A stretch of DNA of 56,751 nt from Candidatus Saccharimonadota bacterium (GTDB lineage: Bacteria; Patescibacteriota; Saccharimonadia; JAGOAT01). Below are positions 1,863-47,377 of the stretch, piece by piece. The position numbers and the translations under genes are program-made. A model generated the notes under the pieces. It was given only the letters and a program-made list of their open reading frames with translations, did no database searches and had not been told where the DNA came from. Location: NCBI GenBank assembly GCA_017983775.1, contig JAGOAT010000001.1, forward strand, positions 1 through 56,751, written 5' to 3'. Positions within the stretch are counted from its first letter, which is position 1. Each line of letters begins with the position of its first letter.

Positions 1863-2358
1863 CTATTTAGTGGTCACCAGATAAATTAAATAGTTCGACT
1901 AAATGTTTTAGTTTATAGTCATCTTGTGCATCAATTGCGGCTGTTTGGACTAAAAACTGAGAGGGTTTTATTCTTTGCCTCAACAATAATCATATGAGAA
2001 TGGTTTAACATATCTCTTTGTCGCTTAATCCGGCGATTGAATAACCCTCTCGCCATAGAAATTTGCGAGATCAAAATTAAAGTATATTAGGTGTTACGCC
2101 CTGCGAAGTGTTTTGATAGTCTGGGGCTATAAAGGGCAATTTTGAAGCCATAAGGCTATATAGCAACCGGCTTAATACACATATTCCAAAAGTTTTTATT
2201 GTAACGCTTTATCACCCCACTCCGGACAACTGCTCGACCCACTGAGCCGAATCAAATGCGATTGCTCTGCGGTGGTTGGTGTATATTTCAATACCCAAAT
2301 CAGCACTACCTAGCAGCTGACTACACATTGATGAAAGGTTGATTACACCATCAATCAT

Positions 2359-3564
2359 TTATATCCTTGATGGTCTTAGGAAGCGATGGTATTGGGCATT
2401 TTTAAATGTATCAATAATAGCTTGTCTGTCCCCATCTGTGAAATCAAACTTAGTAAGTAGATAGGTTAATCCTTCTTCGTTGCCGCCCAAACCAAGGCCA
2501 TGCGCAAAAGTTATAGCAATTACTAATAATGCTACATACTCTTGGCCTGGAACAAACAACATATCCAAAATATCCCTACGATCCAGCAATCCAATAACTT
2601 TACAAAAATCATACCCTAGGAATAAGTCAACTGAGCCCTCTTCTGCTAATCGACTGAAATAATCTTGCTTTGCTCGGAGAATAGTGTCCATAACAGCGTT
2701 GCCCCATTCGTAGGTGCCTTCTGGTTTTTTGAATTGTTCGATCATTGATTCCCATAAACCGTCAATTATATGAACCTTAGCCAATATTTCTTCAGCTTTA
2801 CTGAAATTACTAGCCAGCATAGCGGAAGTTAGCTCCCTATTCGCTTCCAGACGAGCTACACTCTCCCTCCAAGAGTCAGTCGTGATCAGCCCTTTAGCTC
2901 GAGCAGCAGTTTCGGGGTCACTTTCTCCCAGAACAACTATGATGTCGAATAGTGCCTCGTTGATCCAGTATGGAGGGGCATCTGTAACTTCGCCTTTTAT
3001 TTTTAGCTTCCGACTGTAAGACTCGACTAATTCAATAATAGGTAAGGCAAACTCAGTAATCGCACTGGTGTATAGGTGATCATAGCCTCTACCCATACAA
3101 CATAGTACTTCCTTGAGATCAAGATAAGCACCTCTTTTAAGTTTACCTTTCTCTTTAATCAGGGACCTAAAATGCATTAGTGCAATCTCAAAACACTTGC
3201 CCATTAATTCATCTTGTTGCGGCTCTGCAAAGTAAACTTTAGCGTATTCGAAAATCGTAAGGGCTACTCTTCTGTTAGGGAAGTTGCTGGCCTCCCAGGC
3301 TAAAACCTTAAACCCTAGACTTTGCTCGTCTGTGTCTTCTGAGTCAAACAGTGGCTCTATAGCTACGCGCATCAGGTCCAAAGATACGCGCATCAGGTCC
3401 AAGGCATCTATCCCTAAAGCTTTTGCCTCACATCGAGCTATAGTTAGAGCTTCTTGTAAGCCTTTCTCGCTTAAGGTATCCCTTAGTAATTTGTTAAAGG
3501 CCTGAGTCTTATCTCCACTACCCTCATGAGAATGGCTGGTATCTAGGTCACCTGTCATAAACAA
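2359..3564 (-). CDS. hypothetical protein (alpha-helical), contains an in-frame 21-nt tandem duplication
   Basis: Long 401-aa ORF with no motif I recognise. The duplicated peptide is LDLMRVS/LDLMRVA. Confidence 0.5.
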   Translation of the reverse strand: MFMTGDLDTSHSHEGSGDKTQAFNKLLRDTLSEKGLQEALTIARCEAKALGIDALDLMRVSLDLMRVAIEPLFDSEDTDEQSLGFKVLAWEASNFPNRRVALTIFEYAKVYFAEPQQDELMGKCFEIALMHFRSLIKEKGKLKRGAYLDLKEVLCCMGRGYDHLYTSAITEFALPIIELVESYSRKLKIKGEVTDAPPYWINEALFDIIVVLGESDPETAARAKGLITTDSWRESVARLEANRELTSAMLASNFSKAEEILAKVHIIDGLWESMIEQFKKPEGTYEWGNAVMDTILRAKQDYFSRLAEEGSVDLFLGYDFCKVIGLLDRRDILDMLFVPGQEYVALLVIAITFAHGLGLGGNEEGLTYLLTKFDFTDGDRQAIIDTFKNAQYHRFLRPSRI

Positions 3565-3673
3565 TCCTTCGTATTTATTATGATATTACCCTAGCATAAC
3601 CCCTATTGCAAGCATAAGGATTAATAGTCTACTAGTAGTGAGGGATTACTGATGCAATATAGGAACAAGCCTA

Positions 3674-4057
3674 CTAAATCCTGACAACATTTTCCCCACC
3701 CTGATTGGCCAATCGTTTGTCAAATGTCGCCAACTGATTGTTACCGGTAGTGGCCTCTGTCGCTACATAACAATCTACTATAGATAAAGCAGCATGATCA
3801 CGATATAAACTAATCACTTCAGGTAGAAAATCTCGGTTTGTAGCCAAATTTGGGAAATTAAAAAAATCACCGACAAGTCTCGCAATGTCTTGTCTAGGTA
3901 TTTGAAATATTTTTTCTAAGACATAGATAGCCTCGATTATCACTACCTCGGTCACATAGACTTGATTATTCAAGATTAGATTTTCTACCTTTTTGGCTTG
4001 TTCGGGCAAGTCATTAAGTAGGAACCTTAATACCAAATTGGTGTCCAGGCTAATCAT
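3674..4057 (-). CDS. vapC: PIN-domain toxin (VapC-like)
   Basis: MISLDTNLVLRFLL... is the N-terminal acidic PIN motif. An ATG at 4057 overlaps the stop of the upstream antitoxin ORF by 8 nt. The track ORF extends to 4165, but that extension overlaps the antitoxin. Confidence 0.75.
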   Translation of the reverse strand: MISLDTNLVLRFLLNDLPEQAKKVENLILNNQVYVTEVVIIEAIYVLEKIFQIPRQDIARLVGDFFNFPNLATNRDFLPEVISLYRDHAALSIVDCYVATEATTGNNQLATFDKRLANQGGENVVRI

Positions 4058-4640: not shown

Positions 4641-5396
4641 ATGACTATCACAATCATCGGATATGGGCAATTTGGCAAGTTGCTTGCAAAATTGCTCTCT
4701 CCCTATCTAGAAAAGATTTATCTGGTATCCTCCAAGCAACTAACCAATCTACCAAAAGGTTGCCAGCAAATGAGCCTTGAACAAGCAGTCAACAAATCCC
4801 AGCTCATCATTCCCTCTATTCCAATGCAAAACTTTGATCTAATGCTAGAAAAGATTGCTCCATTACTCCAGCCTGACACCATTATAGTAGACGTTAGTTC
4901 AGTCAAGGTCTATCCGATAGAGCAAATGCAACGATTATTACCCTCAAATGTATCAATCCTCGCTACCCATCCCCTGTTTGGCCCAATCAGCATCAATGAA
5001 CAAGGATTGGTAGGCCAACAAATTGTCCTCTGCCCTACTCGGATCAATTTACCTCAATACCAAATGATCAAAGATTTTCTAACCCAAAAGCTAGGTCTGG
5101 TAACAATCGAAATGTCCCCAGCTGAGCATGACCAAGAAATGGCCTGGATCCATGGTCTAAGCTTTTTTGTTGGCAGAGGTTTGACTCAAATGAGCTTGCC
5201 AAAACTCAAATTAAACACGGGATACTTCAAGAAATTAATTGAGCTGTCAGAGACAGAAAAAACTCATAGCTGGGAACTTTTTGAAACTGTCCAAATCTTC
5301 AATCCGTATGCCAAAAAAGTTCGTCAAGATTTCCTCGACATACTATCCAAGCTCAACCAGCACGTATTAAAAAGCGAGAAAAATGACAGAGATTAG
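4641..5396 (+). CDS. tyrA: prephenate/arogenate dehydrogenase
   Basis: N-terminal Rossmann motif IIGYGQFGK, VDVSSVK, and the ATHPLFGP motif characteristic of prephenate dehydrogenases. Confidence 0.7.
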   Translation: MTITIIGYGQFGKLLAKLLSPYLEKIYLVSSKQLTNLPKGCQQMSLEQAVNKSQLIIPSIPMQNFDLMLEKIAPLLQPDTIIVDVSSVKVYPIEQMQRLLPSNVSILATHPLFGPISINEQGLVGQQIVLCPTRINLPQYQMIKDFLTQKLGLVTIEMSPAEHDQEMAWIHGLSFFVGRGLTQMSLPKLKLNTGYFKKLIELSETEKTHSWELFETVQIFNPYAKKVRQDFLDILSKLNQHVLKSEKNDRD

Positions 5397-35730: not shown

Positions 35731-36375
35731 ATGAATAACACTAGCCAGCCAAAATTTGCTATCTATGATTTGATCCTTGTTAGCTTTGCTGTCTTATTTC
35801 TAATCTCTAATCTATCTGCTACCAAGCTAGTATCATTTGGTCCAATTATTACCGATGGAGGAGCAATCCTATTCCCTCTTACCTATATTTTGGGGGATGT
35901 CTTGACTGAAGTTTATGGGTATAAATATGCAAAAAAAGCAATTTGGGTAGGTTTCGGAGTAATGCTACTAGGCGTAGCGGCCTTTACAATAGTCAGATAC
36001 TTGCCAGCAGCTCCTGAATATACTGATCAAGAAGCATTTGAGACTATCTTGGGCTTTTTCCCTAGGATTGTCCTAGCTAGCCTTTTAGCCTTCCTTGCAG
36101 GATCTTTGCTCAATTCAATCAGTCTAATAAAAATTAGATCGGCCACACATGGCAAGGCTCTCTGGGCAAGACTGATTGGCTCTACTATGGTCGGTGAATT
36201 CTTCGATACTCTAATCTTTGGCGTGGTTGCTTTCGCTGGAATTCTCAGTAATTACGACCTATTCAAGTTCATCCTGATTGGCTGGGTCTTCAAAACAGGC
36301 ACAGAAATCGTACTACTGCCGATAACATACAGAGTAATCGATTGGGTAAAAAAGATTGAAAAATTAGAAAACTAA
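35731..36375 (+). CDS. yhhQ: queuosine-precursor transporter (YhhQ/DUF165 family)
   Basis: GGAILFPLTYILGDVLTEVYGYKYAKKAIW is the hallmark YhhQ region. Adjacent to tgt. Confidence 0.8.
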   Translation: MNNTSQPKFAIYDLILVSFAVLFLISNLSATKLVSFGPIITDGGAILFPLTYILGDVLTEVYGYKYAKKAIWVGFGVMLLGVAAFTIVRYLPAAPEYTDQEAFETILGFFPRIVLASLLAFLAGSLLNSISLIKIRSATHGKALWARLIGSTMVGEFFDTLIFGVVAFAGILSNYDLFKFILIGWVFKTGTEIVLLPITYRVIDWVKKIEKLEN

Positions 36376-40086: not shown

Positions 40087-41589
40087 ATGCTTACCCTGAC
40101 ATATAGCACTGCCCATATGGGTTTGAATAGTAGAATTATTGACATAGAAACCCATGTCTCGAGTAGGGGTCTGCCCAATATCATTGTAGTTGGACTCGGA
40201 GATAAGGCAATCGAAGAAGCCAGAGAAAGGATCAGCGCTGCAATTCGCAATTCTGGACTCCAGATTCCTCAGAGCCGTATCACGATCAACCTAGCTCCAG
40301 CTGATCTACCCAAGACTGGTTCAAGCTTTGATTTAGCACTAGCTATTGGGATCTTGTCCTGTAGTCAACAAATTACTCCACCCAACAATAAATCTCTATT
40401 CATAGGTGAATTATCCCTGAATGGCAATCTCAGACCGACCAATTCAGTAGTAGCTAGTACTCATCTAGCTATGGAGCAAAAGTTTGATGCCATATATCTA
40501 CCTGCCCAAAATGCTGAGCAAGCCTCCATCATTAACCAGATCAAAATCTATCCGATCACAAGTCTAATCCAGCTCGCTAATCATCTTAATGGTACAGTGC
40601 CAATCAAGCCAATCAGACCCAAGCCACTGAGACTGACAAGAGTAGTTCCAAATCCTGACTTTGCCGAAATCTATGGCCAAAAGGCGGGCAAAAGAGCAAT
40701 GATAGTCGCAATTGCTGGAGGTCACAACATTTTGCTTAATGGCACACCAGGTGCTGGCAAGACAATGCTGGCCAAAGCAGCTAGAGGCATCCTGCCACCA
40801 ATGAATAAATCTGAAATGATGGAAGTCAACAAGATTCATTCTCTGACTCGTGAGCTAAATGACCTAATTAGTGAGAGACCTTTTCGCTCCCCCCACCACA
40901 CCGCTAGCAATATCTCGCTAATCGGCGGGGGCAAGATACCAAAGCCTGGTGAAGTCAGTCTCGCCCACAATGGTATCCTTTTCTTAGATGAGTTACCAGA
41001 ATTCCCCAAAACTGCTCTCGAGGTACTTCGTCAGCCACTGGAAGATGGGTATGTAAGCATCGCTAGAGCTCAAGCAAGCCTGAGCTTTCCGGCTGACTTT
41101 ATCCTGATCGCTACCCAAAACCCTTGTCCTTGTGGCTACTATGGAGATAACCTCAAGGAGTGTATTTGTAACCTTCATCAAATCCAGAGATATCAAAAGA
41201 AGATCTCTGGCCCACTATTGGACAGGATTGATTTATTAGTCAATATTGAGAGAGTACCCCTAGACCAAATGCAAAATCAAACCAATCTAGAGACCTCCGA
41301 AAAACTCAGATCCCAAGTAATCACAGCCCGCAAGCTCCAATCAGATCGCTACAAAGATTGTTCAATCAACCAAAATAGCCAGCTAACCAACAAGCTGATT
41401 AAGCAATTCTGTTCTCTAGATAAAACCTGCCTTGAACTAACCTATCAGGCACAATCGAGACTCAAGCTCACAGGAAGAAGCTATCAGAGGGTTCTTCGGG
41501 TAGCCCGAACAATCGCTGATTTGGATGGTGCTGAAGATATCTCCAGTGATCACCTCCTTGAAGCCCTGAGCTATCGACCAGCTTCTTAG
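40087..41589 (+). CDS. comM: YifB/ComM family Mg-chelatase-like AAA+ ATPase
   Basis: Lon-protease-like N domain (INLAPADLPK.GS.FDLA.A.GIL), Walker A GTPGAGKTMLAK, LFLDELPEF and a Cys cluster C.CGY.......C.C. Confidence 0.9.
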   Translation: MLTLTYSTAHMGLNSRIIDIETHVSSRGLPNIIVVGLGDKAIEEARERISAAIRNSGLQIPQSRITINLAPADLPKTGSSFDLALAIGILSCSQQITPPNNKSLFIGELSLNGNLRPTNSVVASTHLAMEQKFDAIYLPAQNAEQASIINQIKIYPITSLIQLANHLNGTVPIKPIRPKPLRLTRVVPNPDFAEIYGQKAGKRAMIVAIAGGHNILLNGTPGAGKTMLAKAARGILPPMNKSEMMEVNKIHSLTRELNDLISERPFRSPHHTASNISLIGGGKIPKPGEVSLAHNGILFLDELPEFPKTALEVLRQPLEDGYVSIARAQASLSFPADFILIATQNPCPCGYYGDNLKECICNLHQIQRYQKKISGPLLDRIDLLVNIERVPLDQMQNQTNLETSEKLRSQVITARKLQSDRYKDCSINQNSQLTNKLIKQFCSLDKTCLELTYQAQSRLKLTGRSYQRVLRVARTIADLDGAEDISSDHLLEALSYRPAS

Positions 41590-41866
41590 CGAGGCCTGTG
41601 CTGATGAGATCTTCAGCTCCAGACTGCACATTCTGGGCTATAGTTATTGTCTTTTCTCATCTCATCATCTTGACTAACGTTATTATGATATAAACTTGTG
41701 AGGCCAAAACGGATGATTTTTATTCCGTATTGACAAAATGTAACAGCCGCTATGATGTCTAACAGTCCCAAACTAATAGCGGAAGGATTTGTCATCCTCC
41801 GATTGTCCGTAGGCTCCTCTTCTCGTCATCCCCCGAAACCCTCCCCTGTCTCGTCATCCTCCGATT

Positions 41867-41937
41867 GTCCATAGGACAATACGGGGATCCACCTCTACTG
41901 AGATTTGGATAATTAATCGATACGGGATACTGGATCT
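41867..41937 (+). repeat. left copy of the ~71-nt direct repeat flanking the CRISPR-Cas module
   Basis: tgtctcgtcatcctccgattgtccataggacaatacggggatccacctctactgagatttggataattaat. It matches 47494-47566 at roughly 90% identity, by eye. A partial extra copy lies at 41809-41830 and an inverted ctcgtcatc motif at 41981-41995. Confidence 0.85.
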
Positions 41938-42047
41938 CCGATCTTGCCCATCTAGCAACCCGAAGATGACGAGGTGGAGGGCTGGATTTTGGAAGGTGAC
42001 GGAGTGGAGTCAGACCCTAAACTCCACAACCCCATTGAATCTATCAC

Positions 42048-45000
42048 TTAGCGTAATCCTGGATCAAAACCCACTGATGGATAAGTAAGCTGGCTACGGA
42101 TTAGCTCATAAAATGTATCCTGATCCCATTGCTTTTTATCGGATTGTTTCTTGGTGTCTAGATACTCTGATTTTAGTTTTAAATAACCTCGCAATGCTAT
42201 ATTGAGAGCAGCTTGCAAATCTGCATCTGCAATATGTAGACAATCCAAGTATGGACATACAAAGATAGCCGAGTTGGCATTTTGATTGACCCAATCCTTC
42301 GCATCAAGTTCGCTAAAAATCCTATGATAATCCTTATTCTTACCAATAGCGAATTGCATTGCTTGACTATGTATAGGTGGCCTCATAAAAGCATAGATTA
42401 GCTTAAGTTTATTGATCTCCTGACCGCTCACCTGACCAAAATTACCCCCCGTATATGCTAGCAGTTTATTGTTGTCACCAGTGTCAATAGTAGCTAATTC
42501 AGAAAAATCCTCTAGTATTTCAAGCTGATACTGCTCCTTATCTTTGATGTCATATTTGTACCAACGTTTACATTTACCACAAGTCTGACTAGTGCCAGAA
42601 GCAGATACCTCGATTCCTGGCCTTCTTGTCCGTCCCTTTGCAGCTTTACCCCAGTAATGCTCCAGCTTGGCATTGTCCGCACTATTTTGCCCAAAGACAG
42701 ATCCGACTTTGAGTGATTTATAGACTTTGACAATTCGATTTCCACCAGTCTCAAAGGCATTAATATTAAACTCATAGCTAATTCGTGCCTGATACTTCAA
42801 GGCCAAAGCTTCTACTCTAGCTTGATAGCTACTGGCCAATGACTTGCGCAACTCTGCTATATGGGTAGATTGACTAGAAAAAGTTGCAAATCTTTGACGT
42901 TTTTTGAGCTGAGTTACCTGACCGGAGAGAGCCTGGTGTTGATTGTCACGAATAAATCCCTGATCTACAATGACAACATTACCTTCATCACCTACTTCAA
43001 TAACCAACCATGCTAGACCTTTCTCCCCTACATCTACACCAACTATCCGATTGGGGATTTGTTGCTTCTCTAGCCCAAATGCACCCTTTTTGGATTCTTT
43101 GGCCAGGATATTGAAAGGAATACTTGCAAACACCCTCTCCGAACCCTGAATGTTTTCTATATGAAGTCTAGCCTGATCATCCCATCTAATCTTCTTGCGA
43201 GTTTCCGCAATGCTAAAGCCTCCCATAAATGATAATGGATTATGTTTATATTTTGGTTTCTTGATCAACCACCATAAGAATTGTTTCTGATATCTACTAC
43301 CTCCTATACGGTACAGTGCAGAATTCTTTGCTGGCTTATAAGGCTTAGCAACGGGCAAACTACCTGATTTCGGTTTTGGAAATTGTTTGAGATCGTCAAA
43401 GCCACCCTTAAGCTCAGCACCCATCAATCCACCATGTTGCTCTATGTAATATTTTGTACTAGTCACTGGATCTTTTGGATCAAATACTAGCTTGATTTGT
43501 GCTCCATTGACTTCCTGAATAGCAGATCTCTCTATGTATTCTCTCTTTGAGACCAAACTCAACAACCCCTTGAGCTCAGCTAGCAACATTGTCTGCAAGA
43601 AGGTATTTAGGCTGTGATTATTGAGCCTATAGTCCCTAAGAGCTAGGTATATGTCTTGCAGTTTATTAATAGGCTCTACATTGTCTACCTCAAACTGATC
43701 AACCTTACTAATCAATATACTAGATAATATCTTGATCAATTCAATATAGTCTATTGTAGAATCTAGTTGTCTAATGACCGTTACTGGATTCCTAATCTCC
43801 TCTAGGGTCTCTTCTAATATCTCAATTATTGGGAACCTGCTAGCTGGGGTATCTTGATAGCTGATCAATTCCCTCTTTTGCCTAGCAAAAGGTGAATTGT
43901 AAAACACCTTATCTTCGATATTGAGGGTTTCCATATTAAGTCTCAGCTCAACAAGCGCCAATATCTTGAGAGATTTGTGTGATCTCAGCGATACTGCCCA
44001 TTTCCTTAGCCTCTCCAAATCTTTTGCTTGCAAATAAGCATCTGATTGGTATTTGATAATAGGACTAATAGCACTAAGAAGCTTGGTGAATTGACTGATC
44101 AAACCTTGATAATTATCTTTATAATTTACGACTTTGATAAACTTCTCTCGCGCTGACTCTCCAAGCAAGTTTGGTATCCTAGGAAGTTGCTTGGTGAGAT
44201 CTCTAAAATCAGTCTTGAAATCCAAACCCAACCCTGAGTTGGCCTGTAAATGGGCATTTAGGTCTCTCCTAATCCTAGGTAGTAACAATTGAGCACCTTC
44301 TGTCAATAATGGATCAAGGTACTGATCTGCGTGATAGGTATCTAGCAAAGACTGATAGATATTGATCAGATCATTAATACCTATCCCCAAATCAGGGTCT
44401 TGATCAACCAACTTATCTTGATACTTCGTCAGGTTATCTAGGTGTTTGCTGGCTACAGTGACTATCTCCTCTTCTTGCCTCAGCTTATTACTATAAAATG
44501 AACTCATCTTACTAGCGAAATCAACCCGATAGTCACCCCAACTATTAGCTAGCTTGGGCTGGCCAATATTTTTGGCCAACTCAGCTAGTCTTAGCAATCT
44601 AGCTCGCACTATTTCCCTTTCCCGATCTGTGTATTTGAGATACACACTCATGTCATCCAGGTACTGATTGATCACTTCAGCCCCTTGAGAAGCCAGATCA
44701 TTAAAGACTTGATTGAGGAAATTACTGAAACCACTTGCACTATTGGCTAACCCGATCAACTCCTCGATATCTTTTGCATTTAGACGATCTGTCTTGTCTA
44801 CCAAGTCCAAGTGTAACCTCCGAATAATCTGTTCAAACAGCTCAGTCTTACTATCCGCCTCCAGTTCTTCCCAGCTAGGCAAAATCAAAAATGAGATGGA
44901 TTTTCTGGGACTAACGGGTAGTTGTGGGTCTTTGATGCCAAATAATTCTAGCTTGAATAAGGTCTTTTGATTATCCCCAGTAATCTTATTGATTTGCTTG

Positions 45001-45530
45001 GCAAACTGATGAGCTATCTCTAGCAATCTGTCTGAAGGTCTCTCTTGAGCAGAAATTGTAGCATAACGCTTGAGAAAAATCTCTACCAATTCTGTCTCAG
45101 ATCTAGCATTTAATCTACTAGAGGTCAGTATATTTTGCTCCCAACCAGTATAGTTGAGCTCTTGTTTTAGTGCTGGATCTGGAATCTGATTAAATAAGCT
45201 TTCTAGATAAGAATCATTATCTAGAATTATTTCTCCAAGCTTACCCAGTCTAGCTGTCGAGTACATAAAAACTCCGCCCATCGCCAAAGTCTCCAGCCAA
45301 AACTCTAAGATTGAAGACCTCTGAGCTAAATCAATATAATCACTTAATTGCAACCTACCATAAAGTCCTCGGTAGTCACTAGCTATATTCTTAGTCAATG
45401 CTGGTATGTCATCGCCATAGAGTGGAAACTTGATTGTCCGAATTGCGGTACCATTTTCTGCCCAGGACAATCTAGAATCATGCAAGCGATACCCTGTCAA
45501 TAATCTTTGTGATTTGTTGCGTTTTTTCAT
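42048..45530 (-). CDS. cas12d: single large CRISPR effector, RuvC-only (type V; CasY/Cas12d-like)
   Basis: 1160-aa ORF ending 118 nt from the array. RuvC-I is IVGVDVGEKGLAW (D833, nt 43032-43034). RuvC-II is ISYEFNINAFE (E920, nt 42771-42773). The Zn ribbon is CGKC (984-987) plus CPYLDC (1092-1097). RuvC-III is HIADADLQAALNIALRG (D1102/D1104, nt 42219-42227). There is no HNH motif, and the N-terminal ~800 aa have no motif I recognise. The locus has cas1 only, 25-nt repeats and 18-19-nt spacers. Confidence 0.85.
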   Translation of the reverse strand: MKKRNKSQRLLTGYRLHDSRLSWAENGTAIRTIKFPLYGDDIPALTKNIASDYRGLYGRLQLSDYIDLAQRSSILEFWLETLAMGGVFMYSTARLGKLGEIILDNDSYLESLFNQIPDPALKQELNYTGWEQNILTSSRLNARSETELVEIFLKRYATISAQERPSDRLLEIAHQFAKQINKITGDNQKTLFKLELFGIKDPQLPVSPRKSISFLILPSWEELEADSKTELFEQIIRRLHLDLVDKTDRLNAKDIEELIGLANSASGFSNFLNQVFNDLASQGAEVINQYLDDMSVYLKYTDREREIVRARLLRLAELAKNIGQPKLANSWGDYRVDFASKMSSFYSNKLRQEEEIVTVASKHLDNLTKYQDKLVDQDPDLGIGINDLINIYQSLLDTYHADQYLDPLLTEGAQLLLPRIRRDLNAHLQANSGLGLDFKTDFRDLTKQLPRIPNLLGESAREKFIKVVNYKDNYQGLISQFTKLLSAISPIIKYQSDAYLQAKDLERLRKWAVSLRSHKSLKILALVELRLNMETLNIEDKVFYNSPFARQKRELISYQDTPASRFPIIEILEETLEEIRNPVTVIRQLDSTIDYIELIKILSSILISKVDQFEVDNVEPINKLQDIYLALRDYRLNNHSLNTFLQTMLLAELKGLLSLVSKREYIERSAIQEVNGAQIKLVFDPKDPVTSTKYYIEQHGGLMGAELKGGFDDLKQFPKPKSGSLPVAKPYKPAKNSALYRIGGSRYQKQFLWWLIKKPKYKHNPLSFMGGFSIAETRKKIRWDDQARLHIENIQGSERVFASIPFNILAKESKKGAFGLEKQQIPNRIVGVDVGEKGLAWLVIEVGDEGNVVIVDQGFIRDNQHQALSGQVTQLKKRQRFATFSSQSTHIAELRKSLASSYQARVEALALKYQARISYEFNINAFETGGNRIVKVYKSLKVGSVFGQNSADNAKLEHYWGKAAKGRTRRPGIEVSASGTSQTCGKCKRWYKYDIKDKEQYQLEILEDFSELATIDTGDNNKLLAYTGGNFGQVSGQEINKLKLIYAFMRPPIHSQAMQFAIGKNKDYHRIFSELDAKDWVNQNANSAIFVCPYLDCLHIADADLQAALNIALRGYLKLKSEYLDTKKQSDKKQWDQDTFYELIRSQLTYPSVGFDPGLR

Positions 45531-45576
45531 CTTAATTGATACTTAATCTATATGTTATATCTGTAAATCGCGAGAT

Positions 45577-45620
45577 AGTTGGAAAGGCAAGGTAGCGAAT
45601 CAAACGCTACGGAACCAACT
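45577..45620 (-). ncRNA. candidate scout/tracr-like RNA core (stem-loop with a short anti-repeat)
   Basis: Minus strand reads AGUUGG-UUCC-GUAGCG-UUUGAUU-CGCUAC-CUUGCCUUU-CCAACU. The outer 6-bp and inner 6-bp stems are perfect. GCCUUU in the internal loop is complementary to AAAGGC at the spacer-proximal end of the repeat. The transcript ends are unknown. Confidence 0.35.
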
Positions 45621-45647
45621 TTAATTAAAACACTGGGGAGGTGACTA

Positions 45648-46194
45648 ATCTTTTTCCCCATATTTTTCGGGGCTCTCCGCTGCCGCCTCGGCCTTTTTCC
45701 CCATATTTTTCGGGGTGCTTCAGTCCGCTAGGGGCCTTTTTCCCCATATTTTTCGGGGGGCTAAATTACTTGCAGTAGCCTTTTTCCCCATATTTTTCGG
45801 GGCAACAAAAGGATTGGCAGTGCCTTTTTCCCCATATTTTTCGGGGGACATTGCTGTCCCCTCCTGCCTTTTTCCCCATATTTTTCGGGGGCCATGGGGC
45901 AGGTTAGTGCCTTTTTCCCCATATTTTTCGGGGTAGACGCTTACTGGGCGAAGCCTTTTTCCCCATATTTTTCGGGGAGGTCAGTAATAACTTCTTGCCT
46001 TTTTCCCCATATTTTTCGGGGACAGCACGCACGCGTATGTGCCTTTTTCCCCATATTTTTCGGGGTTGTAAATGTAGCTCCTTGCCTTTTTCCCCATATT
46101 TTTCGGGGATGGTAAAATATAGTCAAGCCTTTTTCCCCATATTTTTCGGGGAGCCAGAAAACCTGGATCGCCTTTTTCCCCATATTTTTCGGGG
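45648..46194 (-). CRISPR. CRISPR array with 13 repeats and 12 spacers
   Basis: The plus-strand repeat is GCCTTTTTCCCCATATTTTTCGGGG (25 nt), present as 12 identical copies starting at 45691, 45734, 45778, 45822, 45866, 45909, 45953, 45997, 46041, 46084, 46127 and 46170. A degenerate terminal copy lies at 45648-45672 (ATC in place of GCC). Spacers are 18-19 nt and all unique. The strand is inferred from the degenerate repeat at the left end and the AT-rich leader at the right. The crRNA-sense repeat is CCCCGAAAAATATGGGGAAAAAGGC. Confidence 0.97.
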
Positions 46195-46303
46195 AGATCC
46201 CGCGAATTTACAGATATAAATTTACAAAAAACTATTGTTTTTCTGTTTATATATTAGCAGTAAGTTGATAATTTTCAAGCCAAATTCACGACAATGCATT
46301 ATA
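46195..46303 (-). promoter_or_regulatory. putative CRISPR leader / cas1-array intergenic control region
   Basis: AT-rich sequence next to the non-degenerate end of the array. It contains the right arm of the array-flanking inverted repeat (46197-46219). Confidence 0.4.
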
Positions 46304-47377
46304 ATGGGACAAAATAGTATGAAAATCAAATCCCCAACCAAACAAGCGCATCATAACAAATCTCCCAATAAATCTCGACGTGTACCCGTATGGATTCCTT
46401 ACCCTTCAAGTATCAGCATAGACAGGCAAGCAAAATTGATTACCGAATACAACGGTGGTGATCTCGAAGCTAGCCTAGATGAGATATCTAGCATCATGAT
46501 CTATGGTGAGACAAAAACTAAGATCGAGATATCTACATTAGAAAAGATTGCCCGTAAAGGAATACCCATCATTATCCATAGGCGCAACATGCATCAATCT
46601 ATCATTATTACTGGCTCTGGCAGACCAGACCCTGATGACACCCTAACCAAGCAAATACTATTCCGCACAAACCAACACAAGAGAAACCATATTGCCCGAT
46701 CTTTGCTCAATGCCAAATTTATTTCATCCAGATGTCTAGTATCAGAAACCATCAAACTTGATAAAGATCTAACTCTTGCAGAAATGAGACAGATTGAAGC
46801 CCAATTGGCTAGAGAATATTGGTCAAACTTCTTTGATCAATTATCACCTGATGCTAGTCTTGCTAGAAGGAATAACAACCCATACAGCAAAGCACTGGAT
46901 GCCAGTAGCAAGTTTCTGACTGGAATAATACTACGCTGGGTAAGCTACCATCACCTCTCTCCTTTCCATGGTTTTCTACACGAACCAACTAGCTACCCTG
47001 CATTGATTTATGATTTAATTGAACCCTATCGACCTATATTTGAATATAAGATTCTCCAGAGTTGGCAAAATGTCATCAGTCCAGACCCCTTAAAACTTAC
47101 AGGTATAGCTATTGATACCATAAAAGATAGTCTCAATGAACAAGTCTACGTACCTCTTACTCGGCAAATAGTCACTAGACAGGAGCTACTTCATGGAATA
47201 GTGCTATCACTCAAGCATTATTTGCTAGGTAATCAATCTCGTCTACTGATTCCTCTGGAGGGTAAACCCAACGGAGGAAGACCTCCCAAGGTAAATTTTA
47301 GACTCTATGGTAGGCAAGCTGGCAAGACTGACTTCTGGCAACAAGCCAGCAAGGTAGCAAAAAATTCTCCCACCTGA
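46304..47377 (+). CDS. cas1: CRISPR-associated endonuclease Cas1
   Basis: ...FHGFLHEPTSYPALIYDLIEPYRPIFE... is the Cas1 His / acidic-residue signature (YDLIEPYRP at 47009-47035), with an upstream EAQLAREYW glutamate region. The start is set at ATG 46304 (alternative ATG at 46319). The track ORF begins at TTG 46235. Confidence 0.9.
   Translation: MGQNSMKIKSPTKQAHHNKSPNKSRRVPVWIPYPSSISIDRQAKLITEYNGGDLEASLDEISSIMIYGETKTKIEISTLEKIARKGIPIIIHRRNMHQSIIITGSGRPDPDDTLTKQILFRTNQHKRNHIARSLLNAKFISSRCLVSETIKLDKDLTLAEMRQIEAQLAREYWSNFFDQLSPDASLARRNNNPYSKALDASSKFLTGIILRWVSYHHLSPFHGFLHEPTSYPALIYDLIEPYRPIFEYKILQSWQNVISPDPLKLTGIAIDTIKDSLNEQVYVPLTRQIVTRQELLHGIVLSLKHYLLGNQSRLLIPLEGKPNGGRPPKVNFRLYGRQAGKTDFWQQASKVAKNSPT

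Follow-up and report, generated by a model that had tools for sequence, protein, structure and literature searches.

A putative scoutRNA gene beside the CRISPR array of a divergent Cas12d (CasY) locus

Genes and array of the locus

The window, by which we mean the whole 56,751-nt stretch of DNA that was analyzed, contains a CRISPR array with an effector gene on one side and cas1 on the other. The effector gene, cas12d (casY), occupies positions 42048..45530 on the minus strand and encodes 1160 aa from an ATG start. Its product matched the NCBIfam equivalog model for Cas12d (NF033951) over residues 11-1118 with a score of 1024 bits (cutoff, 250); the NCBIfam Cas12c model scored 41 bits, which is under its cutoff, and the Cas12e model was also far under its cutoff. 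Comparison with KbCas12d/CasY.1 (P0033) revealed 28% identity from end to end (E 1e-82), with D833 and E920 of the RuvC domain aligning with the catalytic D and E of KbCas12d (D827 and E913 in the preprint) and a conserved DADxQAA motif at residues 1102-1108. An exhaustive HMMER search yielded 184 clusters (50% identity) at E<1e-10, the nearest of which was 40% identical to the effector, and no solved structure was related to it in sequence. Based on the full-length equivalog match and the intact RuvC residues, the 1160-aa effector is, by homology, Cas12d/CasY of type V-D.

The CRISPR array lies at 45648..46194 on the minus strand and comprises 13 repeats of 25 nt and 12 spacers of 18-19 nt. 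In the RNA sense the repeat reads CCCCGAAAAAUAUGGGGAAAAAGGC, and its AAAGGC, hereafter called the anchor, adjoins every spacer. This repeat is strongly similar to the KbCas12d crRNA repeat, CUCCGAAAGUAUCGGGGAUAAAGGC, the two being of near-identical design with a hairpin, an A-rich stretch and AAAGGC, and the similarity indicates that the minus strand is the transcribed one. The minus-strand sense that the initial annotation had assigned to the array and the effector is thus set by homology to the Kb crRNA and, as described below, to the Kb scoutRNA. In the terminal repeat (45648-72), the one closest to the effector, the sequence has degenerated and the anchor is gone (…AAAAAGAU as opposed to …AAAAAGGC in the others); the altered end is the one that, in every other copy, adjoins a spacer. 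The terminal repeat is separated from the cas12d ATG by a gap (45531-45647) whose length is 117 nt, as originally given.

On the other side of the array, cas1 (46235..47377, plus strand; Pfam Cas_Cas1, 73 bits) is divergent from the array, its true start being likely an in-frame ATG at 46304 or 46319. None of the ORFs neighbouring the array matched Cas2- or Cas4-related Pfam families. The short repeats, the 18-19-nt spacers and the presence of cas1 as the only adaptation gene mark a type V-D locus; the array of KbCas12d has 26-nt repeats and 17-18-nt spacers (10.1101/2023.12.12.571249). No tRNA gene was detected at threshold across the 56.7-kb window (1-56751).

The hairpin between the array and cas12d

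A two-tier stem-loop with the stems agttgg/ccaact and gtagcg/cgctac had been noticed in the gap, together with a GCCUUU complementary to the six repeat nucleotides that abut the spacers (AAAGGC), and both observations were reproduced from the sequence. The hairpin occupies 45577..45620 on the minus strand and is 44 nt long. Its outer stem is formed by agttgg (45577-82) and ccaact (45615-20), and its inner stem by gtagcg (45592-97) and cgctac (45605-10), which enclose a 7-nt loop (45598-604). In the RNA sense the element consists, in order, of AGUUGG, UUCC, GUAGCG, UUUGAUU, CGCUAC, CUU, GCCUUU and CCAACU. The 3′ internal loop, read on the minus strand, is CUUGCCUUU (45583-91) and includes GCCUUU (45583..45588), hereafter called the dock, while the 5′ internal loop is the UUCC at 45611..45614, which is conserved across loci. 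The element is separated from the terminal repeat by 27 nt and from the cas12d ATG by 46 nt. As a refinement of the 117-nt candidate, we regard these 44 nt as the functional core and the remainder of the gap as a linker (45621-47) and a tail (45538-76). The linker (45621..45647, minus strand, 27 nt) contains CCUCCCCA, which is able to pair with UGGGGA(A) of the repeat, and together with the degenerate terminal repeat it folds into a hairpin of 6 bp. At the equivalent place in a related locus (L001, ~4833-4850) lies GCCUUCCCCCAUUAU, which is anti-repeat-like.

The fold energy of the 117-nt gap was unexceptional when compared to that of shuffled sequences (z -0.15). The two-tier fold was the centroid of the ensemble and the minimum free energy (MFE) fold was a near-isoenergetic alternative. 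In the MFE fold of the 44-mer, GCC of the dock pairs with GGU of the 5′ outer arm and the outer stem is unformed; similar alternative folds were also obtained for the Kb, L010 and L005 elements. The alternative could be a conformer in which the dock is masked, or an artefact of the energy model. A simple descriptor comprising U[UC]C, GCCUU and two stems no shorter than 6 bp was matched by chance ~0.2 times per shuffled window on both strands, corresponding to ~2e-4 for the 117-nt gap on one strand. What sets the element above chance is its homology and its covariation, described below, and not the hairpin itself.

The best KbCas12d scoutRNA in vitro, scoutRNA1, is a 44-nt RNA with the sequence aaaggguUUCCaguuuuuaacuaaacuUUAGCCUUCCacccuuu (10.1101/2023.12.12.571249, supplement), and it supports DNA cleavage in trans in vitro (10.1101/2023.12.12.571249). 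It shares with the window element a common layout, consisting of an outer stem, UUCC, an inner hairpin, NNN-GCCUU and the other strand of the outer stem. We found the exact scoutRNA1 sequence at positions 21-64 of contig L015, which encodes P0033, where it follows a truncated repeat at the edge of the contig and lies 24 nt upstream of the cas12d ATG. The Kb and window elements therefore lie on the same strand and in the same place, with a degenerate terminal repeat on one side and the cas12d ATG on the other. By contrast, the sequences of their stems are wholly different, their effectors are only 28% identical, and the dock is complementary to the repeat over 6 nt in the window (GCCUUU:AAAGGC) and over 5 nt in Kb. 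The experimental support belongs to the Kb RNA.

Classical tracrRNAs (type II, V-B, V-E, V-F, V-G and V-K) carry anti-repeats of roughly 10-25 nt or more. The window element would resemble them as a small RNA that is encoded beside an array, pairs with the repeat and forms part of the effector complex, but it differs from them in that its complementarity is limited to 6 nt. If it were nevertheless a classical tracrRNA, with extensive repeat pairing and RNase III processing, its location next to the array of a type V locus and the weak possible pairing of the linker (45621-47) with the repeat (RNAduplex -14.8) would be accounted for, and the 'scoutRNA' of Cas12c did prove to be more extensively paired (PMC9522604). 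However, no anti-repeat longer than 8 nt was found within 5 kb on either side of the array on either strand, the longest exact matches (8 nt) fall in coding regions, and the 6-nt dock is the only complement of the repeat within the conserved core. Since no longer anti-repeat lies nearby, the element is better described as a scoutRNA, and a classical tracrRNA has in our judgement a very small chance of being correct. ScoutRNAs are defined by having few repeat-complementary nucleotides (3-6; PMC9522604), consistent with the 6-nt dock:anchor complementarity found here without a long anti-repeat. We also considered a pairing of UUCC with GGAA of the repeat, and rejected it: GGAA is present in the window repeat and missing from the L001, Kb and L008 repeats.

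Searching Rfam did not reveal any family at the gathering score anywhere in the 56.7-kb window, and the best match within 41500-47000 (E 0.21) was unrelated. No scoutRNA family was matched, and such a family is apparently absent from Rfam 15.

A comparison outside type V-D is offered by Cas12c, where a scoutRNA dock of 3-5 nt pairs with the repeat nucleotides beside the guide and the RNA is needed together with the crRNA (PMC9522604). A short dock acting on the guide-proximal nucleotides of the repeat is also what we propose for the window element. The Cas12c2 RNA is longer, with several stems and three repeat:anti-repeat duplexes (Kurihara et al. 2022, PMC9522604), and the Cas12c2 structures revealed more crRNA pairing than the scout model had predicted (PMC9522604). 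The window differs in showing no such extra complementarity in the 5-kb flanking search and in encoding an effector of another subtype. By analogy with Cas12c2, the true contacts in Cas12d may be more extensive than the 6-nt dock.

Conservation and covariation in related Cas12d loci

Loci for Cas12d homologues (27-40% identity to the window protein) were retrieved through the contigs encoding the cluster representatives. Besides the window, 12 independent loci contained a scout-like element. A conserved hairpin at the same position was recovered in 11 of the 12 loci with upstream sequence (L001, L005, L007, L008/L009, L010, L011, L012, L013, L014, L015/L016 and L017), in each case on the cas12d strand and 24-79 nt upstream of the gene. 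Wherever an array was present on the contig the element was downstream of it, with the exception of L004, in which the scout (3143-3105, minus strand) precedes the array, runs antisense to the cas genes and is distant from cas12d. The L004 protein is a distant relative (1255 aa, 27% identity over 42% of the window protein). In that locus (2141-3143) the array and the scout are on the strand opposite the cas genes, which include cas1 and a PD-(D/E)XK (Cas4-like) gene.

Considering this position, the element might mainly be a cis-acting leader of the cas12d mRNA that controls translation or stability, rather than a trans-acting RNA. Such a leader is expected close to the cas12d ATG and on the strand of the gene, as the element is in 11 of 12 loci; our scans placed no promoter-like site between the scout and cas12d, and the tail, which pairs with the array leader as described below, extends to ~8 nt from the ATG. 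On the other hand, the L004 element could hardly act on cas12d in cis from its distant, antisense position upstream of the array, the Kb homologue acts in trans in vitro, and a dock complementary to the repeat has no obvious purely cis role. We consider a mainly cis-acting element improbable; cis and trans roles are mutually compatible, and a dual role is possible.

Several features of individual loci deserve description. In L005, which encodes a Cas12d homologue of 30% identity, two tandem scout-like copies (~3609-3654 and ~3833-3878) were observed within 3500-3900; no canonical array lies within 4 kb, and short pieces ending in CAAGGC are found between the two copies. The leader of L017 contains, at 4899-4919, an 18-21-nt sense-strand anti-repeat whose complementarity to the initial 18-21 nt of every repeat is 89-90%. 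The metagenomic contigs L011, L012, L013, L014 and L015/L016 start 88-339 nt upstream of cas12d, in or at the edge of the array; on such broken contigs the scout is usually kept while the array and the leader are lost. Searching for related loci with a single protein and then with a 3-sequence alignment returned none in genome contigs or viral contigs and only L005 in metagenome contigs. A homologous-protein search with a 37-sequence alignment returned nothing new, and a scan of viral contigs for the repeat pattern found nothing.

UUCC and GCCUU are the sole primary sequences conserved among the scout elements. GCCUU was present in 12 of 12 aligned loci and also in L017, and UUCC in 10 of 12, the remaining two having UCCC and UUUC. 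Of the nine repeats examined, Kb included, all end in AAGGC and eight in AAAGGC, the L017 repeat ending in UAAGGC. The dock and the anchor are thus invariant across loci, which places their pairing beyond the reach of covariation analysis.

Because the stems have no sequence in common, plain MAFFT failed to align the scouts correctly, and a hand-made structural alignment padded with N was used instead. Both stems, whose comparison in homologous loci had been suggested by the initial annotation, covary across the 12 loci: with the caveat that the alignment was fitted by hand to the structure, which inflates these figures, 94% of the cells were standard pairs compared to 33-48% when the partners were slid by 1-3 columns, 15 of 15 base pairs changed on both sides, the outer helix was 100% paired, and none of 500 shuffles reached as high a covariation score. 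In independent MFE folds of the single sequences, the inner hairpin formed in all 12 loci and the outer stem in eight. We then searched the 56.7-kb window with a covariance model (R2) that had been trained on L013, L008, L011, Kb and L004, the window being left out. On both strands and with the filters off, the top match was 45577-45620 on the minus strand (23.7 bits, E 5.3e-5), and R2 also recovered L007, which was outside the training set. We attribute the second match (36052-36090, plus strand; 19.6 bits, E 0.0013) to chance; its outer stem is broken and it lies inside a Vut_1 transporter gene (35731-36375). The longest sequences outweighed the others in another model (R1), for which the fully N-padded alignment had been used; R1 missed the window element, matched the array repeats and was discarded.

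The conservation of the outer stem bears on whether the hairpin simply stops the array transcript ahead of cas12d, as an intrinsic terminator or attenuator would. A consensus scan flagged the inner hairpin followed by the CTTGCCTTTC tail as terminator-like, and in several loci the dock enters a U tract, e.g. GCCUUUUUU in L014 and GCCUUUUU in L010. However, the 3′ arm of the outer stem lies downstream of that tail, and in the hand-fitted alignment all 7 of its pairs show compensatory changes and its pairing is 100%, indicating that it must be transcribed. Moreover, GCCUU is invariant and not merely U-rich, and the Kb homologue, also 44 nt long, sustains the cleavage of DNA in vitro. In L001 the scout is followed by what resembles, by eye, a separate GC-rich hairpin with a T-run, although it was not called by the scan. 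Taken with the covariation, these observations leave a terminator very improbable.

We conclude, with a probability of about 0.9, that this type V-D (Cas12d/CasY) locus has its scoutRNA gene at 45577-45620 on the minus strand. This assignment is based on the homology of the effector, the repeat and the scout, on the conserved position, on the covariation of both stems and on the lack of a long anti-repeat; the element lies next to the array in the crRNA sense and is homologous in sequence and structure to the validated Kb scoutRNA. The proposal that the gap encodes a scoutRNA-like RNA for an effector of the Cas12c/Cas12d kind is accordingly strengthened by the NF033951 match, the Kb layout, the top match of R2, the covariation and the position. 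It is a known kind of element, found here in a new, divergent Cas12d locus, and the finding is of use in annotation and guide design and is unsurprising.

A scoutRNA was described as required for DNA cleavage by Cas12d by Harrington et al. 2020 (Mol Cell 79:416), as cited in PMC8616872, PMC9522604 and PMC11127173, and in the Kb preprint (10.1101/2023.12.12.571249); the published data concern CasY15 and KbCas12d. By analogy, we infer that the window element is expressed, bound by Cas12d and required for activity. Its transcription would follow the sense of the array and cas12d, and the RNA would most likely form the 3′ portion of the array transcript. Folded into the two-tier hairpin, it would expose UUCC and the dock GCCUU(U) on opposite sides of the internal loop. 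Cas12d would bind this RNA, and the dock would pair with AAAGGC, the anchor that directly precedes each guide at the end of the repeat, thereby holding the very short crRNA handle in the protein. The crRNA, the scoutRNA and Cas12d would together constitute the DNA-cutting complex, and with crRNA alone the enzyme is expected to be inactive or poorly active.

Complementarity between the array leader and the scout tail

The tail directly 3′ of the scout core (45538..45576, minus strand) is complementary to the leader segment abutting repeat 1 (46196..46236, minus strand). The perfect core of the match is 14 nt long (45555-45568 in the tail and 46206-46219 in the leader) and grows to ~22 nt with one G·U pair and one bulge, the two arms abutting the scout and repeat 1. 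The predicted tail:leader duplex (RNAduplex, -30.9 kcal/mol) had a z of about -6.5 to -6.9, with none of 1000 shuffles as good, and no other 100-nt minus-sense segment of the window paired with the tail as well as the leader did (next best, -25.0 kcal/mol). Such complementarity was present in all five independent loci in which both array ends are available, namely the window, L001 (4563-78/4929-44, 16 nt), L007 (291-322/696-727, 32 nt), L008/L009 (L008 coordinates 4382-4405/4967-90, 24 nt) and L017 (4858-90/5868-5900, 33 nt). The sequences of the arms vary by locus, and the tail arm starts within a few nucleotides of the outer stem of the scout. When compared to dinucleotide shuffles, the RNAduplex energies of the five loci had z values of -4.2 to -6.9, and at most one shuffle in 500-1000 was as good.

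Upstream of the leader arm of the window, a consensus scan placed a promoter-like site at 46251..46278 on the minus strand (TTGAAA-16-TAATAT with an upstream TG), which would, as a consensus match, start the array transcript ~8 nt ahead of the leader arm. Promoter-like sites were found just upstream of the leader arm in L008 and L017 as well as in the window, in a number not above the shuffle expectation.

One possible explanation, which we put forward tentatively, is that the array and the scout are carried on one transcript, whose leader and tail pair into a 14-33-bp helix that encloses both and serves as a processing or stability stem. The helix may be an RNase III site that sets the 3′ end of the scoutRNA. 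It may also part the non-coding RNAs from the downstream cas12d message, possibly masking the cas12d translation start. Alternatively, the leader and tail copies might represent one DNA motif, such as a promoter or an operator; the copies are in the same orientation relative to cas1 and cas12d and upstream of both. As to the level at which the complementarity acts, the sense duplex was more stable than the antisense duplex in five of five loci, and the mismatches in the arms called by the tool comprised eight G·U on the sense strand versus one A·C (binomial p 0.02), a bias suggestive of an RNA helix.

We also considered whether the scout and its tail could be a natural guide that represses the leader in the manner of a tracr-L, and regard this as unlikely. 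The outer stem, rather than the dock:anchor helix, is the point from which the tail extends; the leader site follows AG/GA, whereas the reported PAM is TA/TR; and the mismatch and the bulge are at the PAM-proximal end.

Precursors of rRNA are bracketed by processing stems that are substrates of RNase III. The likeness to them concerns the leader:tail pairing only, in which a complementary 5′ leader and 3′ trailer would enclose functional RNAs. To our knowledge, no such enclosing stem has been described for CRISPR arrays, and the literature that we searched, which did not extend to the original scoutRNA paper, makes no mention of the leader:tail feature. The complementarity may be the only part of the present findings that is new.

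In practical terms, users of this divergent Cas12d (28% identical to CasY.1) would need its scoutRNA, and the 44-nt core and the 25-nt repeat could be taken directly into guide design, following the reported KbCas12d sgRNA design. The multi-locus consensus could seed a covariance model for scoutRNA annotation. A 2024 review lists the processing of the V-D pre-crRNA and scoutRNA as an unknown step (PMC11127173), and leader:tail pairing, if it takes place at the RNA level, would bear on this step.
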